This document shows, piece by piece, positions 13,095-64,000 of a stretch of DNA of 64,000 bases. Origin of the DNA: an uncultured Clostridia bacterium (GTDB taxonomy: Bacteria; Bacillota; Clostridia; Christensenellales; CAG-314); NCBI GenBank assembly GCA_947628135.1, contig CANQYT010000004.1, positions 28,566-92,565 on the forward strand, read 5' to 3'. The notes under the pieces are model-generated. The model searched no databases and was not told the DNA's origin. It saw nothing but the letters and a program-made list of their open reading frames with translations. Numbering within the stretch: the first letter of the stretch is position 1; the number at the start of each line of letters is the position of its first letter. The position numbers were made by a program, and so were the translations under genes.

Positions 13095-13123
13095 TTGCTA
13101 AAAAAATCGGCTTATGTTACAAT
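13095..13123 (+). promoter_or_regulatory. sigma-A-type promoter for rplS
   Basis: TTGCTA at 13095-13100, 17-nt spacer, TGtTACAAT extended -10 (13118-13123). An 83-nt leader follows and may correspond to an L19 autoregulatory leader, which I could not verify. Confidence 0.5.
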
Positions 13124-13206
13124 ATATCAGTGACTTCGGGCGGTCCTCTGACTTTACGATAGTGTATGAACGCTTAGTTAACAAAATAATTTGGAGGAAA
13201 AGTCAA

Positions 13207-13545
13207 ATGGACATCATCAAACAAATCGAGTCGGAATCTTTGAGAGAAGTAGCCGAATTCAGCGTGGGCGACACCGTACGCGTCAACTTCAAAGTTATCG
13301 AAGGTAACAAAGAAAGAATTCAGGCATACGAGGGTATTGTCATCGCACGCAAGCACGGCGGTCTGCGCGAGACGTTTACCGTCAGACGTATTTCCAACGG
13401 TATCGGCGTTGAAAGAACGTTCCCCGTTCACAGCCCCAAGATCGAAAGCATCATCGTTGTCCGCAAGGGCGATGTGCGCCGCGCCAAGTTGTACTACCTG
13501 CGCGAACGTACAGGTAAAGCCGCCAAGGTTAAAACGCAAAGATAA
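13207..13545 (+). CDS. rplS: 50S ribosomal protein L19
   Basis: [58 protein letters not shown] precedes the start. Confidence 0.97.
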
Positions 13546-13613: not shown

Positions 13614-14200
13614 GTGACATTGTACGCAGAGCAAATAGTGTAGATTTAGTGAAGTGCTTATTTCCTACTTGCTTTTCTAATAGTTATTCCCGTTTCCGCA
13701 GCAAAGTTTTTTACTTTTACGAATTATACAGTCAAATATTTTGAAACAAGTTTTGGTTTATTTTCAAACATAGTCAAGTGTTCGGCTATTTTTTTTTCTG
13801 TTACACAAATTTAGTATTTTTTACAACAACTTTTTCCGTGTAAGTGACATTGAACGCAGAGTAAATAGTGTGGTTTTGGCGTAATTTGCTTTTTCCCCAC
13901 TTCTTTTTCCGATAGTGTTTCACGTATCCGCAGCAAAGATTTTTACCTTTTATGAATTTTACAGCCAAATATTTTGAAACACGCTTTTTTTTATTCTCAA
14001 ACATAGTCAAGTGTTCGGCTATTTTTTTTTCTGTTACACAAATTTAGTATTTTTTTACAACAACTTTTTCCGTGTAAGTGACATTGAACGCAGAGTAAAT
14101 AGTGTGGTTTTAGCGTAATAGTGCGTATTTCCGCTTACTGTTTTCAATAGCGTCTGCCTTTCTCGTGACAAGGTTTTTGCCGATTTTCATATATAAACGT
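13614..14200. repeat. tandem repeat, about 230-bp unit, 2 full copies plus a partial third
   Basis: Units begin with gtgacattg-acgcagag-aaatagtgt at 13614, 13844 and 14078 (periods 230 and 234). The unit ends and junctions are near-identical while the centres are diverged. Confidence 0.85.
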
Positions 14201-14322
14201 TACTTGAAAACTTTTTGTTCAGACTAAAACAATTTTTTGTCCTCAAACTTTGCTGCCGTCTGTTTGACAAAGTATTTTTTGACAATTGCCTGCCGTTGAT
14301 ATATTTCATCATAGTTTTCGGT

Positions 14323-14334
14323 GGGGGGGGGGGG
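14323..14334 (+). repeat. G12 homopolymer tract (intergenic)
   Basis: 12 consecutive G on the + strand, counted directly. Confidence 0.95.
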
Positions 14335-14604: not shown

Positions 14605-16128
14605 ATGCTTGCAGTGATAAAAAGTTACGGGCTGAAAGGACTGGAAGGATTTCCCGTTTCGGCGGAGATTGATATGCATTCAGGGATACCGTCCTACGAC
14701 ATAGTCGGACTCGCCGATACGGCGGTAAAGGAATCGAAAGAGCGCGTTCGTTCGGCTATGAAAAACAGCGGTTACCAATATCCCGTTGCGGCGGTGGTAG
14801 TCAACCTTGCGCCTGCCGACATCAAAAAGGAAGGCAGTTTGTACGATCTGCCCATAGCGATAGGAATGCTCGCCGCAAGTAAGCAGATACCCTACGAAGC
14901 GCTGAAAAAAGCCGTTGTGTTGGGCGAACTTTCCCTCAACGGCAAGGTTCGTAAAGTAAACGGTTTGCTTCCGATGATTATCACTGCGGTGCAACAGGGA
15001 GAAAAAGTTTTCGTGATCCCCAAAGAAAACGTCGGAGAGGCGGTGTTTATCGAGGGCGCGACAATATACCCCGTTGAGACGCTTCGCGAAGCGGTGGAAT
15101 TACTTACGGGGCAGAAAGATATCCCGCCTTTGACTATCCGCAGTTGGAAAAACGATCTGGAATTCAATCACAGCGACAACGACTTCAAGTATATCAAAGG
15201 TCAGTATGCCGCAAAACGCGCTATGGAGATAGCCGTTGCGGGCGGACACAACATAATTATGATAGGACCTCCCGGCGCGGGCAAAACGATGCTGGCGCGC
15301 GCAGTGCCGTCGATTATGCCCAATCTCACCTTCGAAGAAGCGTTGGAAGTGGCTAAGATACACAGCGTGTCGGGTCAGTTGGACGGGTTTATCTACGAAA
15401 GACCTTTCCGCACTCCGCATCACTCGTCTACTATGGTGGCGTTGACGGGCGGCGGCAACAAAGCGCGCCCCGGTGAGATAAGTCTGGCGCACAACGGCGT
15501 TCTGTTTCTTGACGAACTGCCCGAATACAGCCGTCAGACCTTGGAAACGTTGCGGCAACCGTTGGAGGACGGGGTTATCACCGTGTCGCGTAACGCCGTT
15601 TCGGTGACGTATCCCGCCGATTTTATGCTTATCGCAAGTATGAACCCTTGCCCTTGCGGCAATTACGGAAGCGCAACGGCGGAGTGTACTTGTACAGCTT
15701 CGCAGATACATAGGTATCTGAACAAACTTTCAGGACCTTTGCTCGACCGAATAGACATTCACATCGAAGTGGACAACGTCGGTTTCGGCGAATTGCAGGA
15801 GGACGCTTTTGCCGAACCGTCTGCCGTTATACGGGAACGCGTCAACAAGGCGAGGGAAATTCAACTTGCCCGTCTGTCTCCCTATGGACGCCGTTGCAAC
15901 GCGCAAATGACTTCCGCGGACATAAAGCGGTTTTGCAAGACGGACAAACAGAGTGCGGAGTTGTTGGAAAATTCCTTCAAAAAACTCAATCTTACGGCGC
16001 GCGCGTACAATCGTATTCTGAAAGTGGCGCGTACGATCGCCGATCTGGACGGGGCGGAGAACATCGCCGTCAAGCACGTGGCGGAATCGTTGCAGTACCG
16101 TCAGTTGGACAGAAAATACAGGGTTTGA
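14605..16128 (+). CDS. comM: Mg-chelatase-like AAA+ protein ComM/YifB
   Basis: N-terminal Lon-like domain, Walker A GPPGAGKTMLA, Walker B LFLDELPE, C-terminal ChlI domain. Confidence 0.93.
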   Translation: MLAVIKSYGLKGLEGFPVSAEIDMHSGIPSYDIVGLADTAVKESKERVRSAMKNSGYQYPVAAVVVNLAPADIKKEGSLYDLPIAIGMLAASKQIPYEALKKAVVLGELSLNGKVRKVNGLLPMIITAVQQGEKVFVIPKENVGEAVFIEGATIYPVETLREAVELLTGQKDIPPLTIRSWKNDLEFNHSDNDFKYIKGQYAAKRAMEIAVAGGHNIIMIGPPGAGKTMLARAVPSIMPNLTFEEALEVAKIHSVSGQLDGFIYERPFRTPHHSSTMVALTGGGNKARPGEISLAHNGVLFLDELPEYSRQTLETLRQPLEDGVITVSRNAVSVTYPADFMLIASMNPCPCGNYGSATAECTCTASQIHRYLNKLSGPLLDRIDIHIEVDNVGFGELQEDAFAEPSAVIRERVNKAREIQLARLSPYGRRCNAQMTSADIKRFCKTDKQSAELLENSFKKLNLTARAYNRILKVARTIADLDGAENIAVKHVAESLQYRQLDRKYRV

Positions 16129-29873: not shown

Positions 29874-30596
29874 GTCAAAAACGTTTCATTTGTTGTGAGT
29901 GCGGATATTTCGGCAAACAACGAGAAAACAACAGTGCAACACCTAAAAATCGGCGCGAGTCATTTTGCGGAGTCGTTGAAAGGTTGAAACATTGGAATAT
30001 TATATTGAAATTTTGTAAAATTTCTTGTAATTCAGAAACAAAACAGCGGCATTGGTCGCAGGCGTTGTGTTGACCTGTCGGCACTTCATTTTGAAAAGCA
30101 GTGAAATAGTTATTGTAATTTTTCCATTTTCGATTTGTGTACTTAACCTTTTTGATAGCAGATATTTTATTGACTTGGTCGGCAGGAATACAAATTATTT
30201 TTTCAGTATTACGTTATGTTTCTTGCGGTCGGTCGCCGCTTCGGTAAATTTCGGTGTGTTTTTTCGGTAGGTGTCTCGTCAGACAAAGTTAGGTTTTCCT
30301 AGTGGCGTAATTGAAACGATGCGAAAAAACTATGTTCAATAAAAATAGGTTTTCCAAATTATCTTAAATATCTGAGAAAAACGGTCGGTTTGGGTTGTCT
30401 GCTGTGCCGAGACTTCATTCGAATTTGTTCGTTTGTTTGTTGTTTGGGTAAATTTCGGTTTACGTTTTGCGCGGGCGGTTACTGCTTTGCGGGCTTTTGG
30501 TGGCGGCTGCGGTCGGTTCGGCGGTTGTTTCGGGTGGGGGAAAAGCGGTTTTTCCTCCTTTTTGCAAAAAATTTACGTAAATATTCCTTTTCGTTG

Positions 30597-30628
30597 TTGA
30601 CAAAAACAGACGGGGGGGGGGGTATACT
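30597..30628 (+). promoter_or_regulatory. sigma-A-type promoter of lipoprotein paralog 1 with a poly-G spacer
   Basis: TTGACA at 30597-30602 and TATACT at 30623-30628. The 20-nt spacer ends in G11. A GGAG RBS and the ATG at 30661 lie downstream. Confidence 0.6.
30612..30622 (+). repeat. G11 homopolymer tract
   Basis: 11 consecutive G abutting the -10 box, counted directly. Confidence 0.95.
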
Positions 30629-30660
30629 GATTTTGATTATACATTCCAAGGAGAAATTCT

Positions 30661-30963
30661 ATGAAAAGCCGTAAAATACTTTTATTGTTTTTGTTGACTT
30701 TGGCGTTGGCGTTTGCGATGGTTGCGGGCGCGGGCTGCGCTCCGTCCGAAGCGCCCCAACACACGCACACTTTTGCGGAGGGTTGGACGTTCAACGACTC
30801 CGAACATTGGCACGCCGCCACCTGCGGACACTCCTCCGAGAGGGATTCCGTTGCTCCTCACGACATTGACGGCGACGGTAAATGCACCGTGTGCGACTAC
30901 GAAACCGCCCCCGCGCCCGAAAAAATGACGTTTGAGCAACTCGTTGCGGATCACAAAGAGTAA
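30661..30963 (+). CDS. lipoprotein paralog 1, N-terminal part ending at a premature in-frame TAA
   Basis: Signal peptide with lipobox (LALAFAMVAGAGC) and a Cys/His motif. It ends at TAA 30961-30963, where paralog 2 has GAA. Confidence 0.7.
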   Translation: MKSRKILLLFLLTLALAFAMVAGAGCAPSEAPQHTHTFAEGWTFNDSEHWHAATCGHSSERDSVAPHDIDGDGKCTVCDYETAPAPEKMTFEQLVADHKE

Positions 30964-32286: not shown

Positions 32287-32860
32287 ACGTGCGGCAGTTA
32301 AAAGTGCTCAATGTTGCAAAGTTCCGCGCGCAACGGAAAAGGAAGTAAACCAACGCAACGGACAAGGAACAGGTTTCACTTGTTGCCTACGGTTTTGTGA
32401 CTTTTACACCCAAAACCTGCACAGCGTTCCTCCTTGCAACGTCCGCAAACATATCCCGCGCGACGAAAAGCGTACTCAAAGCAAAGGCTGTCGGGCGTAT
32501 TGTTGCAAAGTGGACAGCAGTATAAAGGGCGCAATTCGTTTTCAATGTCAAACGTGCGGCAGTTAAAAGTGCTCAGTGTTGCAAATGTCTGCGTGCAACG
32601 GAAAAGAAAGTAATCAATGCAACGGACAAGGGCGAGGTTTCACTTGTTGCCGACGGTTTCAAGACTTTCGCACCAAAAACAATTGCACAGCGTTCCTCCT
32701 TGCAACGTCCGCAAACATATCCCGTGACGAAAAGCGCACTCAAAGCAAAATGCTGTCGAACGTATTGTTGCAAAGTGGACAGAGGCACAAAAGGGCGCAA
32801 TTCGTTTCCGACGCCAAACGTGCGGCAGTCGAAAGCGTTCCGCGCCGTTTGCGGAAAACA
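32287..32860. repeat. tandem repeat, about 265-bp unit, 2 full copies plus a partial third
   Basis: acgtgcggcagt starts at 32287, 32552 and 32818 (periods 265 and 266). The units are well conserved over their whole length by eye, with substitutions clustered in a few short patches, and carry no conserved ORF. Confidence 0.85.
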
Positions 32861-53959: not shown

Positions 53960-53968
53960 GGGGGGGGG
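53960..53968 (+). repeat. G9 homopolymer tract (intergenic, AT-rich surroundings)
   Basis: 9 consecutive G, counted directly. Confidence 0.95.
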
Positions 53969-54387: not shown

Positions 54388-55848
54388 ATGAACAACATTT
54401 ATCAGGACATCGCGGAGCGCACCAACGGCGACGTATATATAGGCGTTGTCGGACCGGTGCGCAGCGGCAAATCGACGTTTGTTACAAACTTTATGACAAA
54501 ACTGATTTTGCCGAACATAGCGGATAAAAACGAGCGTAAGCGCGCCAAGGACGAACTTCCTCAATCCGCGGACGGCAAGATGATTATGACGACGCAACCC
54601 AAATTCGTTCCCAATGCCGCGGTGAAACTGTCGCTCGGCGACAAGGCTACGGCAAACGTGCGCTTGATAGATTGCGTGGGGTATCTCGTGGAGGGCGCGG
54701 AGGGGCATCTCGACGGCGAAAAAATGCGCCTCGTCAACACTCCGTGGTCTGCCGATCCCATTCCGTTTGAAAAGGCGGCGGAAATAGGCACGCAAAAAGT
54801 GGCAACGGAACACTCAACGATAGCGGTGGTCGTCACGACGGACGGCAGTATAGGGGAAATTCCCCGTCAAAACTACATCGGCGCGGAAGAAAGAGCCGTT
54901 CGGGAACTGAAACAGTCGGGCAAGCCCTTTGTCGTGGTACTCAATTGCACAGATCCTCGCAGCGACTCCGCCAAGGAACTTTCGCTTGCTCTGCGGGAAA
55001 AGTACGGAGTGGAAGTGATTCCTCTCAACGTTCTGTCCGCAAGCGGCGGCGAGTTGGAAGAAGTGTTGCAGTGTATTTTGAAAGAGTTCCCCGTAAGGCG
55101 CATAGCGTTGAATCTGCCTATGTGGATGCGCGCGCTGGAAAAGGACAACAAATTTATCGCGGAATTGTTGGACCGCGTAAAAAAGTGCTGCGACGATATC
55201 CGCAAGATGAAGGACTCGGACAAACTTATCGCCGCGTTCGACGGGTGCGATTTTGCCGAATCAATCGCCGCGACGGATCTAAATATGGGCAGCGGTGCGG
55301 CAAACTATTCTTTCACGCCCAAGTCCGACTTGTTTTTCCGCGTGCTTTCCGACGAGGCGCAGATGGAAATTACGGACGAATTTTCGCTGATGAGTTTCGT
55401 TACGGGCGCGGCATACGCCAAGCGACGCTTCGAAGCGATGAAAGACGCTCTGGAACAATCTGATACGAACGGCTATGGGATAGTGTACCCGAAAACGGAC
55501 AATATGACTCTCGACGAACCGCAAATGGTAAAGCAGGGCAACGTCTACGGTGTAAAACTCAAAGCGACTTGCCCGAGTTACCACATTATTCGCGTGGACG
55601 TCAACACGGAAGTGAGCCCGATGGTGGGAACGGAACAGCAAAGCCGTTACCTGCTTGACGAGTACAAACAAAACCCCGACGCTATCTGGAACACAAATAT
55701 GTTCGGAAAGACGATGGCGGACCTTGCCAAGGAGGGGCTCGAAGGCAAATGCAACGCTATGCCTGCCGAAATCAAGCAAAAACTGACCCGAACGGTAAGC
55801 AAGATCGTCAACGAAAATCGCGGCGGATTGTTCTGTCTGATTTTGTGA
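54388..55848 (+). CDS. spoIVA: stage IV sporulation protein A
   Basis: IYQDIAERTNGDVYIGVVGPVRSGKSTFV Walker A N-terminus and full-length (about 490 aa) SpoIVA colinearity. A GGAGG RBS precedes the start. Confidence 0.96.
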   Translation: MNNIYQDIAERTNGDVYIGVVGPVRSGKSTFVTNFMTKLILPNIADKNERKRAKDELPQSADGKMIMTTQPKFVPNAAVKLSLGDKATANVRLIDCVGYLVEGAEGHLDGEKMRLVNTPWSADPIPFEKAAEIGTQKVATEHSTIAVVVTTDGSIGEIPRQNYIGAEERAVRELKQSGKPFVVVLNCTDPRSDSAKELSLALREKYGVEVIPLNVLSASGGELEEVLQCILKEFPVRRIALNLPMWMRALEKDNKFIAELLDRVKKCCDDIRKMKDSDKLIAAFDGCDFAESIAATDLNMGSGAANYSFTPKSDLFFRVLSDEAQMEITDEFSLMSFVTGAAYAKRRFEAMKDALEQSDTNGYGIVYPKTDNMTLDEPQMVKQGNVYGVKLKATCPSYHIIRVDVNTEVSPMVGTEQQSRYLLDEYKQNPDAIWNTNMFGKTMADLAKEGLEGKCNAMPAEIKQKLTRTVSKIVNENRGGLFCLIL

Positions 55849-62070: not shown

Positions 62071-62155
<85 letters not shown>

Positions 62156-62292
62156 AAGCCTCTCGATTACGCAATGTTGTGGTTGGGGGACTTTTTTTGT
62201 GCTTTTTTGTCGTCAACTTGCTTTTTTTTATTGAAAAACGTATTTTAGGATAGTTTGCGGATATTTATTGTTGTCAATTTTGCCTTTCACTG

Positions 62293-62323
62293 TTGACAAA
62301 TCGCCATGGGGGGGGGGTATACT
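62293..62323 (+). promoter_or_regulatory. sigma-A-type promoter of lipoprotein paralog 2 with a poly-G spacer
   Basis: TTGACA at 62293-62298 and TATACT at 62318-62323. The 19-nt spacer ends in G10. A GGAG RBS and the ATG at 62355 lie downstream. Confidence 0.6.
62308..62317 (+). repeat. G10 homopolymer tract
   Basis: 10 consecutive G abutting the -10 box, counted directly. Confidence 0.95.
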
Positions 62324-62354
62324 TATTTTATATATAAACTAATGGAGCAACTGT

Positions 62355-64000
62355 ATGAAAAAAAAGATTTTTTTATTTGCATTGTTGGTATATATCTTTG
62401 TTGCCGCGTTTGCGCTTGTTGCCTGTACGCCTACAGATCCGCCCGTTACGCACACGCACTCTTTTGCGGAAAGTTGGCAATACAATTCTACCGAACATTG
62501 GCACGCCGCCACCTGCGGGCACTCCTCCGAGAGGGATTCCGTTGCTCCGCACGATATTAACAGCGACGGCAAATGCACCGTGTGCGACTACGAAACCGCA
62601 CCCGCGCCCGAAAAAATGACGTTTGAGCAACTTGTTGCGGATCACAAAGAAGAATTGAACGAATTTGTGACGGAGGCAATTGCGCCGTCCGTCCTCGCAA
62701 ACAAGGAGATTCTTTCCGAGAGCCGCTACGTTGCTTCCGCAGAGGACGGAAACTTGGGCACAGTGAGCCTCCTCTACATCTACAAAAACGATGAGACTGT
62801 CCGTACAATGGAACTTGCCGAAGTTACGCTTACAAGCACGGTCACAAACGTCGACATTGCAAACGGCACGTTTGCAACTCCCGCCGTGAGCGTGGAAAAG
62901 ACGGAAGTTTTTCAATTCGACGCGAAAGAAAACTTTGAAAAGCAGGACGTTGCGGAACTTCTGTACAAAGCGGCTAAGTGCGAAAGCGCAGAGGTGAAAT
63001 TGTTCCGCGAACTTGAAGCCGATTCCGTCAGGATTCGTTCCTTTGCTATCCTCGTACAGAGCGACGGCTTTGTTCGAATCAAAAACGTGAACGTCGAAGT
63101 GACCGACGACACGGACGAAGCGCTGAAAACCAATCTTGCAGACAGCAACAAATACGACGCGCACGTCGCCGTCTCGGAAGTGGCATTGAAGGGCACAAAT
63201 ATACTTGCGGGCGATTACCGACTTGAAGAATTCGATGTCACCCCCGACGACCCCGATATCCCGAGCGCCATTACCGACAAACAACTCATTGCCGCGCTTG
63301 AACAGTACTGCAAAGACGATTTTTTGGATAAATCTGCAACAAAAGAAGTTATCGAAATGATATATGGTTCTTTTGATAAAAACAAGATGTCAGATGAAAA
63401 TTGGTATATAAATGAAGATGAAGAGGGGAAAATCACAGCGATAGAATACTCATTTTTCTTCAAGGCAAATGCAACACACGGTAATTTTGTTATTTGTTAT
63501 ATGACGTTTAATACCCCTTGCTCGCAAGAAAATCTTGTAAAGGGAAATTTGCCTACGGCTACTTACAAGATGAACGAAGAGTATTCACTTAGTTACAACC
63601 CCTCAATTCAAACCGAGCGGAGTGCGCTTGCCAATGCGATATTGACCGCGTGCAAAGGCGCGCCCGCCGACAACAACTCGACTGTAATTTTGGTGGATAA
63701 CGGTAGCACCGTAGATGGTTCTTTGGGCGGTGACGGACACGTCTGTCAATTCAACGTCGTGGAAATAAGCGAAAGCGGTGCGACGGAATATAAAGTAAAA
63801 ATCAGAAGCGCAAAGAGCCTTGACCAAAAAGAGGCTGACGCTGAATATATGCAATACATTGCCGACGGATATTGGGCTCAAACCGCAACCCCACGTGAGT
63901 ACAAAATTACGGGGCGCAGGTTGGTGGCGGAAGAAAGTGATACAAAAATTGACAAGCAGATTTTGGACGCGCTTGAAAGCAATTATATGCAAGGAATAAT
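62355..64000 (+). CDS. lipoprotein paralog 2 (intact; 3' end beyond the window)
   Basis: This ORF is not in the supplied track because it has no stop in the window. I translated it by hand from ATG 62355 (GGAG RBS) and it is open to 64000. It has a signal peptide with lipobox (FALVAC), the same Cys/His motif, and is colinear with 30661-32235. Confidence 0.85.
   Translation, partial: MKKKIFLFALLVYIFVAAFALVACTPTDPPVTHTHSFAESWQYNSTEHWHAATCGHSSERDSVAPHDINSDGKCTVCDYETAPAPEKMTFEQLVADHKEELNEFVTEAIAPSVLANKEILSESRYVASAEDGNLGTVSLLYIYKNDETVRTMELAEVTLTSTVTNVDIANGTFATPAVSVEKTEVFQFDAKENFEKQDVAELLYKAAKCESAEVKLFRELEADSVRIRSFAILVQSDGFVRIKNVNVEVTDDTDEALKTNLADSNKYDAHVAVSEVALKGTNILAGDYRLEEFDVTPDDPDIPSAITDKQLIAALEQYCKDDFLDKSATKEVIEMIYGSFDKNKMSDENWYINEDEEGKITAIEYSFFFKANATHGNFVICYMTFNTPCSQENLVKGNLPTATYKMNEEYSLSYNPSIQTERSALANAILTACKGAPADNNSTVILVDNGSTVDGSLGGDGHVCQFNVVEISESGATEYKVKIRSAKSLDQKEADAEYMQYIADGYWAQTATPREYKITGRRLVAEESDTKIDKQILDALESNYMQGI

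Follow-up and report, generated by a model that had tools for sequence, protein, structure and literature searches.

A G tract of variable length in the −35/−10 spacer probably acts as a slipped-strand, tract-length-dependent promoter switch or rheostat at both copies of a lipoprotein gene in the window, the term used here for the whole 64,000-nt stretch of DNA analyzed. In the proposed mechanism, a sigma-A-type TTGACA/TATACT promoter carries a spacer composed of 8–10 non-G bases and a pure G9–G11 run adjoining the −10 hexamer. Slipped-strand mispairing at replication would add a unit to the G run or remove one, and each such change would alter the −35/−10 distance and rotational phase, and with them the promoter strength. 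The outcome would be heritable, reversible, cell-to-cell variation in the expression of a modular, mosaic surface lipoprotein. In this strain, the gene behind the promoter at 30597 is broken by a stop codon; the copy at 62293 is the working example.

Promoter layout at the two lipoprotein loci

The two promoters share one layout on the plus strand. At paralog 1, the −35 hexamer TTGACA (30597–30602) is followed by the 9-nt non-G part of the spacer, AAAACAGAC (30603–30611), and by a pure G11 tract (30612–30622), the candidate slippage site, which is flush with the −10 hexamer TATACT (30623–30628). The resulting spacer is 20 nt long. A GGAG ribosome-binding site (30650–30653) lies 7 nt 5′ of the ATG at 30661. 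At paralog 2, TTGACA (62293–62298) is followed by the non-G part AATCGCCAT, a pure G10 tract flush with the −10 hexamer (62308–62317), and TATACT (62318–62323), with a spacer of 19 nt; GGAG lies at 62344–62347 and the ATG at 62355. Re-reading the sequence confirmed that the coordinates given for both layouts in the initial annotation are exact. Transcription would be expected to start approximately 7 nt after TATACT, and the tract length would be expected to alter it. At the sequence level, both promoters have features of a repeat-in-spacer contingency promoter. Each contains a pure homopolymer of at least about 8 units (G11 at 30612–30622 and G10 at 62308–62317), and the signal peptide, the lipobox, the mosaic body, and the enrichment of this protein class behind the same layout in other genomes all point to a surface product.

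A chance origin of the TTGACA/G-tract/TATACT layout is excluded. The window, with a G+C content of 49.6%, contains three TTGACA-N14–22-TATACT matches against 0.03 expected, and four tracts of at least nine Gs against 0.17 expected matches, with both expectations derived from dinucleotide-preserving shuffles. Its G runs comprise two of length 6, none of 7–8, and one each of 9, 10, 11, and 12, and no run of C is longer than 5. Five other sites in the window resemble promoters (TTGAC[AT] plus a −10 hexamer deviating at no more than one position), and all of them show 17-nt spacing, with two of the five allowing a second reading, at 20 and 14 nt. The 19- and 20-nt spacers of the two lipoprotein promoters therefore represent a true departure from the local norm.

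The window holds one further exact hexamer pair and two further long G tracts. The third TTGACA/TATACT pair, at 32519–32551 on the minus strand, has a 21-nt spacer without a G tract; it is located inside a 265-bp tandem repeat 3′ of paralog 1 and faces back to that gene. This non-coding repeat (32287–32829, 2.0 copies, 86% match) lies between paralog 1 and rpsB, and is also found in two other contigs (L007 and L008). The longest tract in the window, G12 at 14323–14334, occupies a non-coding gap of about 1 kb between rplS (13114–13545) and a comM-like Mg-chelatase gene (14605–16128), and no convincing ORF was found across it. A promoter-like TTGACA-N15-TATATT site is located at 14279, and because the G12 tract lies approximately 15–20 nt downstream of it, the tract would sit in a 5′ leader rather than in a spacer. 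The G12 tract was rejected as a promoter of the same layout, which is absent there. Just 5′ of this tract, another non-coding tandem duplication (13614–14129) comprises 2.2 copies of a 233-bp unit with 87% match. The G9 tract at 53960–53968 lies within the 930-bp intergenic region from efp to spoIVA. The minus strand here reads TTGTAC-N9-C9-TACAAT, with an 18-nt spacer and no clear gene after it; this tract was rejected as a weak fit, being on the opposite strand with a C tract, which is the rare orientation. Across 80 related genomes, the G9 tract upstream of spoIVA is absent, and the conserved part of the spoIVA upstream region is limited to the last ~55 bp before the start codon.

Common descent of the two promoters

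The recurrence of the layout at two loci reflects descent from a duplication, because the two copies align from just 5′ of the −35 hexamer through the ATG, and paralog 1 retains a tRNA-Tyr remnant. This remnant (30400–30425, plus strand) aligns to the 3′ part of the tRNA-Tyr gene at 62071–62155 on the plus strand, the last of a six-tRNA array, which the lipoprotein locus follows in all orthologous contigs. An Rfam search at gathering thresholds detected only these six tRNAs among the RNAs of the window. The order of tRNA-Tyr, a short intergenic stretch, the G-tract promoter, and the lipoprotein gene is kept in five contigs (L001, L002, L006, L011, and L212). The region 5′ of the paralog 1 promoter (30380–30545) is an odd G+T-rich stretch, with a terminator-like hairpin at 30536–30558, and resembles a decayed version of the tRNA-Tyr/lipoprotein junction (62071–62290). 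The initial annotation had described the upstream flanks as unrelated and had taken independent recurrence of the layout as an argument for function. The first statement is incorrect, and the argument built on it fails, since the promoters are paralogous. Conservation across diverged orthologs, as read from the sequence alignments described below, takes the place of that argument.

The lipoprotein genes and their products

Both genes encode predicted signal peptidase II lipoproteins according to sequence criteria. Their N-termini, MKSRKILLLFLLTLALAFAMVAGAGC and MKKKIFLFALLVYIFVAAFALVAC, each combine a basic region with a hydrophobic stretch and with a lipobox whose Cys falls among the first ~30 residues, and this pattern is kept in the related proteins P0003 and P0005–P0008. 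In both ORFs, the lipobox is followed by a Cys/His-rich motif, HTHTF..W....EHWHAATCGH....CTVCDY. Paralog 2 (P0001; 62355–64000, plus strand) comprises 755 aa, extends past the window end, and carries the lipobox ..LVAC, the Cys/His motif, and two modules of about 200 aa. The family alignment shows that the bodies consist of 1–3 copies of this ~200-aa module behind the Cys/His motif. Mosaic modular bodies behind a constant promoter and signal peptide fit a variable surface antigen, with surface exposure predicted from these features. The lipoprotein body matched no Pfam family, and the family profile matched no PDB sequence. An AlphaFold model (pLDDT 77.5, pTM 0.37) gave query-normalized TM scores of only 0.05–0.10 in Foldseek and was uninformative. 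A protein-pattern search of species-representative genomes returned no relatives of the family, and a family-specific DNA pattern gave 0 matches in JGI metagenomes; the family is known from two ENA/Logan sample series only. The host is a spore former, as indicated by spoIVA at 54388–55848 (Pfam). At the species level, it is closest to uncultured rabbit-gut ("Lapin") Clostridia and to MAGs labelled Christensenellaceae, whose SpoIVA proteins are at most 83% identical to its own.

Paralog 1 is split on the plus strand by an in-frame TAA at 30961–30963, which is codon 101. The first piece (30661–30963) encodes the signal peptide, the lipobox (..VAGAGC), and the Cys/His-rich N-terminal motif, while the remainder (P0002; 30964–32235, 423 codons) continues in the same frame without its own signal peptide. 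At the position of this stop, paralog 2 and the paralog 1 ortholog P0003 have Glu, and the codon in the relatives is GAA. The same TAA is present in contigs L007, L008, L237, and L239, and thus in at least five assemblies in all, indicating that the stop is real and fixed in the strain. The promoter at 30597 consequently controls at most a 100-aa fragment. It had been proposed to drive lipoprotein paralog 1; a lipoprotein N-terminus does follow it, but an intact gene does not.

It is a real possibility, although not one that we favor, that the 30597 locus is a decaying duplicate whose G11 run is free-running and without present function, so that only the paralog 2 copy matters. The fixed stop codon is in line with such decay, as are the degraded tRNA-Tyr junction upstream, the intact state of P0003 in another strain, and the 20-nt spacer, in which G11 is the allele furthest from 17 nt. 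On the other hand, paralog 1 retains intact hexamers, a pure G tract, and an intact ribosome-binding site and signal peptide, and its predicted 100-aa product would still be a lipoprotein that includes the conserved Cys/His motif. Past the stop codon, the ORF shares 84% identity with paralog 2 and is not interrupted again, so the inactivation is recent. Loss of function at 30597 would be compatible with the proposed switch at the level of the family. A separate GAA-to-TAA change was observed in another sample, where a paralog-2-type gene (L212) is cut at codon 122 (at about 552–554; ..EVLN*SYFVS.. versus ..EVLNESYFVS.. in P0005). Two independent nonsense knock-outs in such a small family suggest either recurrent selection against expression or relaxed constraint.

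Family conservation and tract-length alleles

A G9–G11 promoter stands in front of every recoverable member of the lipoprotein family. The family set comprised 16 contigs reaching the promoter, with 11 complete promoters, seven of which were aligned; the contigs are Illumina assemblies at low coverage (2.7–5.3×). TATACT is identical in 7/7 aligned promoters, and L001 (TTAACA) shows the sole departure from TTGACA. Likewise, the G run is pure in 7/7, and flush with the −10 hexamer except in L010. The non-G spacer bases (8–10 nt) and the upstream DNA diverge among these promoters.

The alleles differ in length both between and within loci. Promoters of the paralog 2 type, with identical non-G spacer bases, carry G10 in the window (19 nt), G9 in L240 (18 nt), G10 in L212 (19 nt), and G11 in L006 (20 nt), the last two representing other strains; no contig of this type breaks in the tract. 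At the P0006 locus, L001 has G10 (20 nt), L002 and L003 have G9 (19 nt), and L004 breaks in the tract. The P0008 promoter (L011) has G9 (19 nt) and the P0007 promoter (L010) has G9 plus a C (18 nt), neither with breaks. For the paralog 1 type, the tract is G11 (20 nt) in both assemblies that span it, namely the window and the independent L237, while L007/L238, L008, and L239, from the strain of the window, and L005, from another strain, break within it. In total, 5/16 family contigs end inside the tract, which fits length heterogeneity but also an Illumina artefact at G tracts.

The clearest length change is seen within one strain. The paralog 2 tract is G10 in the window and G9 in L240, which represents the same strain in another sample, and this unit is the sole difference between them, with 0 mismatches in 2138 bp. 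Similarly, L001 and L002, from one strain, differ over 7190 bp by one tract unit and seven substitutions, all within 120 bp upstream of the tract. Six of these are X-to-T changes clustered 55–85 nt 5′ of the tract (4840–4880 in L001), and one more lies in the −35 hexamer (TTAACA). The cluster may reflect poor read quality after the homopolymer, or else a patch of local recombination; the six X-to-T changes look technical. The other same-strain overlaps with the window amount to ~12.7 kb with a single substitution, which makes the G tract by far the most changeable site. These comparisons show that the tract is hypervariable between same-strain assemblies. The comparison across related genomes that the initial annotation had called for has thus revealed tract-length differences between unchanged flanks (window versus L240), in Illumina assemblies of ~5× coverage. 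Illumina reads degrade at G tracts (PMC9187656), and the contig breaks, and possibly the single-unit length calls, could therefore be technical.

The complete family spacers measure 18 nt in two cases, 19 nt in five, and 20 nt in four (n = 11), and none of the 11 is a 17-nt allele. The G8 allele predicted to restore an optimal 17-nt spacer was accordingly not seen, the family ranging over 18–20 nt and the listed members of the wider class described below peaking at 18–19 nt. The 18–20-nt alleles are probably weak or off states, or form a graded series, with G7–G9 being stronger. Either the assemblies mostly catch low or off states, or a simple rule that 17 nt means on fails.

G tracts flush with the −10 hexamer in other genomes

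The same layout is widespread among bacterial genomes. An exact scan for TTGACA-N6–16-G8-TATACT, which allows total spacers of up to 24 nt, was run on one genome per species for 185,579 species, and yielded at least 120 loci and at least 126 sites, those listed lying mainly in gut Firmicutes, against ~12 expected in random sequence. Of two controls, both listed in full, the one in which C8 replaced G8 yielded 24 loci, chiefly in high-G+C environmental taxa, and the one with G8 adjoining the −35 hexamer gave 52. By taxon label, 89 of the at least 120 loci listed belong to Bacillota, including 41 Clostridia-class loci, 34 from RF39-like Bacilli or "Tenericutes", and seven from streptococci; the listed Clostridia-class loci include Christensenellaceae and rabbit-gut relatives of the host. 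Spirochaetes account for seven loci among the matches listed. In the initial annotation, the layout was not known as a described theme in spore-forming Clostridia-like Firmicutes. This agrees with our literature search, incomplete in coverage and weak as evidence, which found no description of a G-tract spacer promoter in this class, but not with the genomes themselves, in which at least 41 of at least 120 listed loci are Clostridia-class.

The listed spacers cluster at 18 nt (37 sites) and 19 nt (42 sites), with 13 sites each at 17 and 20 nt and two at 21 nt; no spacer of 22–24 nt occurs among the matches listed, although such lengths were allowed. G9 (54 sites) and G10 (31 sites) are more frequent among the listed matches than the minimum of G8 (19 sites), whereas in either control layout the most frequent spacer is 17 nt and the most frequent tract is the shortest allowed. 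Shorter non-G parts pair with longer G runs, indicating that the total spacing is the quantity being held. An A-like geometry of the G tract found no support as the basis of the 18–19-nt mode, because the physically equivalent C-tract control, a small sample, peaks at 17 nt.

In more than 100 species, the genes behind these promoters predominantly encode predicted surface proteins. According to a crude N-terminus classifier for secreted proteins, lipoproteins, and pilins, the first downstream ORF has a signal peptide, lipobox, or prepilin N-terminus in 71/102 cases (70%) among the matches listed, compared with 111/589 (19%) of the other ORFs of the same listed loci (odds ratio 9.9, p = 1e-23). 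Three downstream proteins were analyzed with Pfam and gave surface types in 3/3 cases: a choline-binding, PspA-like protein of a mitis-group streptococcus (L096), an N-methyl prepilin, and a CWB2 wall protein from a Clostridia MAG that encodes three such paralogs in tandem. The three CWB2 promoters (L186) have identical flanks and tracts of G9/G8/G9, and streptococcal pspA-like promoters likewise combine identical flanks with G9/G9/G11. A relative of the host (L135, Lapin-004 bin7) carries the same layout before a lipoprotein with repeats of the same Cys/His motif.

Several genomes in the scan merit separate description. Six mitis-group pspA-like loci (L096, L124, L136, L147, L152, and L161) carry a TTGACA-N9-G8..G11-TATACT promoter with 17–20-nt spacers and identical flanks, the G count varying between species. 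Our search of the literature, again of incomplete coverage and weak as evidence, found no description of a G tract in pspA promoters. The "Tenericutes" MAG UMGS855 has six G-tract promoters (L095, L117, L141, L142, L159, and L190), several of them before type IV prepilin-like genes, and a Bacilli MAG (L188) has three tandem copies. Such multi-copy genomes suggest that whole repertoires may be under G-tract promoter control.

We propose only tentatively, and with considerable doubt, that these loci constitute a widespread promoter class, as yet undescribed, that occurs in gut Firmicutes and in some other bacteria associated with hosts and is characterized by sense-strand G flush with the −10 hexamer, a preference for 18–19 nt, and rheostat behavior with a non-zero floor. 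The extended −10 contact is TGn. Under such a scheme, the tract would always offer G at −13 to −15, so that an extended −10-like contact would be partly kept at every length, and slippage would shift only the −35 hexamer, resulting in a rheostat whose output never falls to zero instead of an all-or-none switch. The constant G at −13 to −15 would also explain the strand and position bias. In Christensenellales-like Clostridia, RF39-like Bacilli, and mitis-group streptococci, the class would govern a large share of the variable proteins at the cell surface, namely lipoproteins, CWB2 wall proteins, type IV pilins, and PspA-like choline-binding proteins.

Other possible roles of the tract

The G block might instead be a static promoter feature, fixed by selection for an extended −10-like contact at −14/−15 or for spacer stiffness, with the length differences arising from neutral drift or homopolymer miscalls and having no switching role. 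The strong strand and position preference, with G over C and flush with the −10 hexamer, and a total spacer held tightly at 18–20 nt would be expected of such a feature, and the G11 shared by both spanning assemblies of paralog 1 and the trouble of Illumina reads at G tracts (PMC9187656) are also in keeping with it. However, a contact of this kind needs two or three Gs, not 9–14 unbroken ones, and the purity of the tract is kept across diverged species while its length varies between identical flanks. The downstream genes are overwhelmingly surface proteins, as contingency loci, but not a generic promoter element, would predict, and a consensus miscall at ~5× would require most reads to be wrong. 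We therefore regard a static role as unlikely.

Still less probable is an action of the tract other than through the −35/−10 spacing, whether as a regulator site, as the target of an alternative (e.g., sporulation) sigma factor reading GG..A.A.T, or as non-B DNA. The host is a spore former, the modal 18–19 nt of the listed sites is atypical for sigma-A, and GGGTATACT presumably bears a loose resemblance to forespore-type −10 motifs. The reading of GGGTATACT by a sporulation sigma factor was nevertheless rejected, since almost all family members keep a perfect TTGACA, and lineages that do not sporulate (Streptococcus, Treponema, and RF39-like Bacilli) carry the layout as well. Furthermore, an intramolecular quadruplex cannot arise from one G run alone, and the length compensation between the non-G and G parts marks total spacing as the constrained quantity. 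Finally, although two-colour Illumina chemistry yields poly-G and contigs break at the tract, an assembly or sequencing artefact in which the G run is not in the genome is effectively refuted, because the tract is internal with matching unique flanks, turned up independently in ENA and Logan assemblies of at least ten samples from two studies, and shares its layout with isolate genomes of other species.

Taken together, the reading of the tract as a phase switch retains the support of the conserved hexamers, the same-strain length change, and the link to surface genes, whereas the independent recurrence and the 17-nt allele have fallen away.

Implications of a probable G-tract switch

Phase variation in gut commensals has been charted mostly through invertible promoters and methylation, and most known promoter switches based on repeat tracts come from pathogens. 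Should the tract be a working switch, stochastic variation of a family of mosaic surface lipoproteins would occur in an uncultured spore-forming Clostridia lineage, which would bear on escape from IgA or phages and on strain persistence in the gut. The sequence signature would then flag hundreds of candidate variable surface genes in gut Firmicutes. Carriers of the layout that are available in culture include Anaerovorax odorimutans, Pumilibacter intestinalis, Mediterraneibacter massiliensis, and mitis-group streptococci. As a practical warning, G tracts break short-read assemblies, and a tract length read from a MAG is a majority call only.

Comparison with known systems

Repeats in or near the promoter spacer set the graded or on/off expression of surface proteins in Neisseria meningitidis (porA, opc, and fetA), Haemophilus influenzae (hifA-hifB), and Bordetella pertussis (fim). 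The lipoprotein promoters resemble these systems in that surface protein expression would be set by repeat-driven changes in spacing. The hosts of these systems, in contrast, are Proteobacteria, the tract is G, C, or TA and not necessarily flush with the −10 hexamer, and some of the promoters depend on an activator (BvgA). A closer parallel in gene organization is the Vlp system of Mycoplasma hyorhinis, in which a poly-A tract occupies the −35/−10 spacer of paralogous lipoprotein genes with a conserved promoter and signal peptide and variable bodies. Both systems thus combine a homopolymer spacer with several paralogous lipoprotein genes whose variable bodies stand behind a constant promoter and signal peptide. 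They differ in the tract, which is A rather than G in Vlp, and in the host, a wall-less Mollicute versus a spore-forming member of the class Clostridia. In addition, Vlp size variation involves short in-frame repeats, unlike the 1–3 copies of a ~200-aa module found here.

Among gut commensals, Bifidobacterium breve carries G10–G12 tracts in sortase-pilus genes, whose length distribution shifts in vivo, and the authors of that study mention unpublished G tracts in promoter spacers (PMC9187656). The likeness lies in a gut commensal with G tracts of varying length; the characterized tracts of this actinobacterium, however, are located in coding sequence, where they act as frameshift switches. In Treponema pallidum, the poly-G of tp0126 lies between the −35 and −10 elements and gives the best activity at a total of 17 nt, and tprL is active with G8 and near background with G10, most cells having G9 (PMC7864442). 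The promoters of tp0126, tprE/G/J, and tprL are similar to those described here, with a G tract of ~7–12 inside the sigma-70-type promoter that drives a surface or outer-membrane protein gene. As in tprL, where the commonest allele is longer than the optimum, the common alleles here lie 1–3 units above 17 nt. T. pallidum is a spirochaete pathogen with unrelated proteins, and the effect of its tracts has been proven by reporter assays and fragment-length analysis, while that of the present tracts is predicted from sequence. The proposed mechanism is a known one, placed here in a new lineage and a new gene family.
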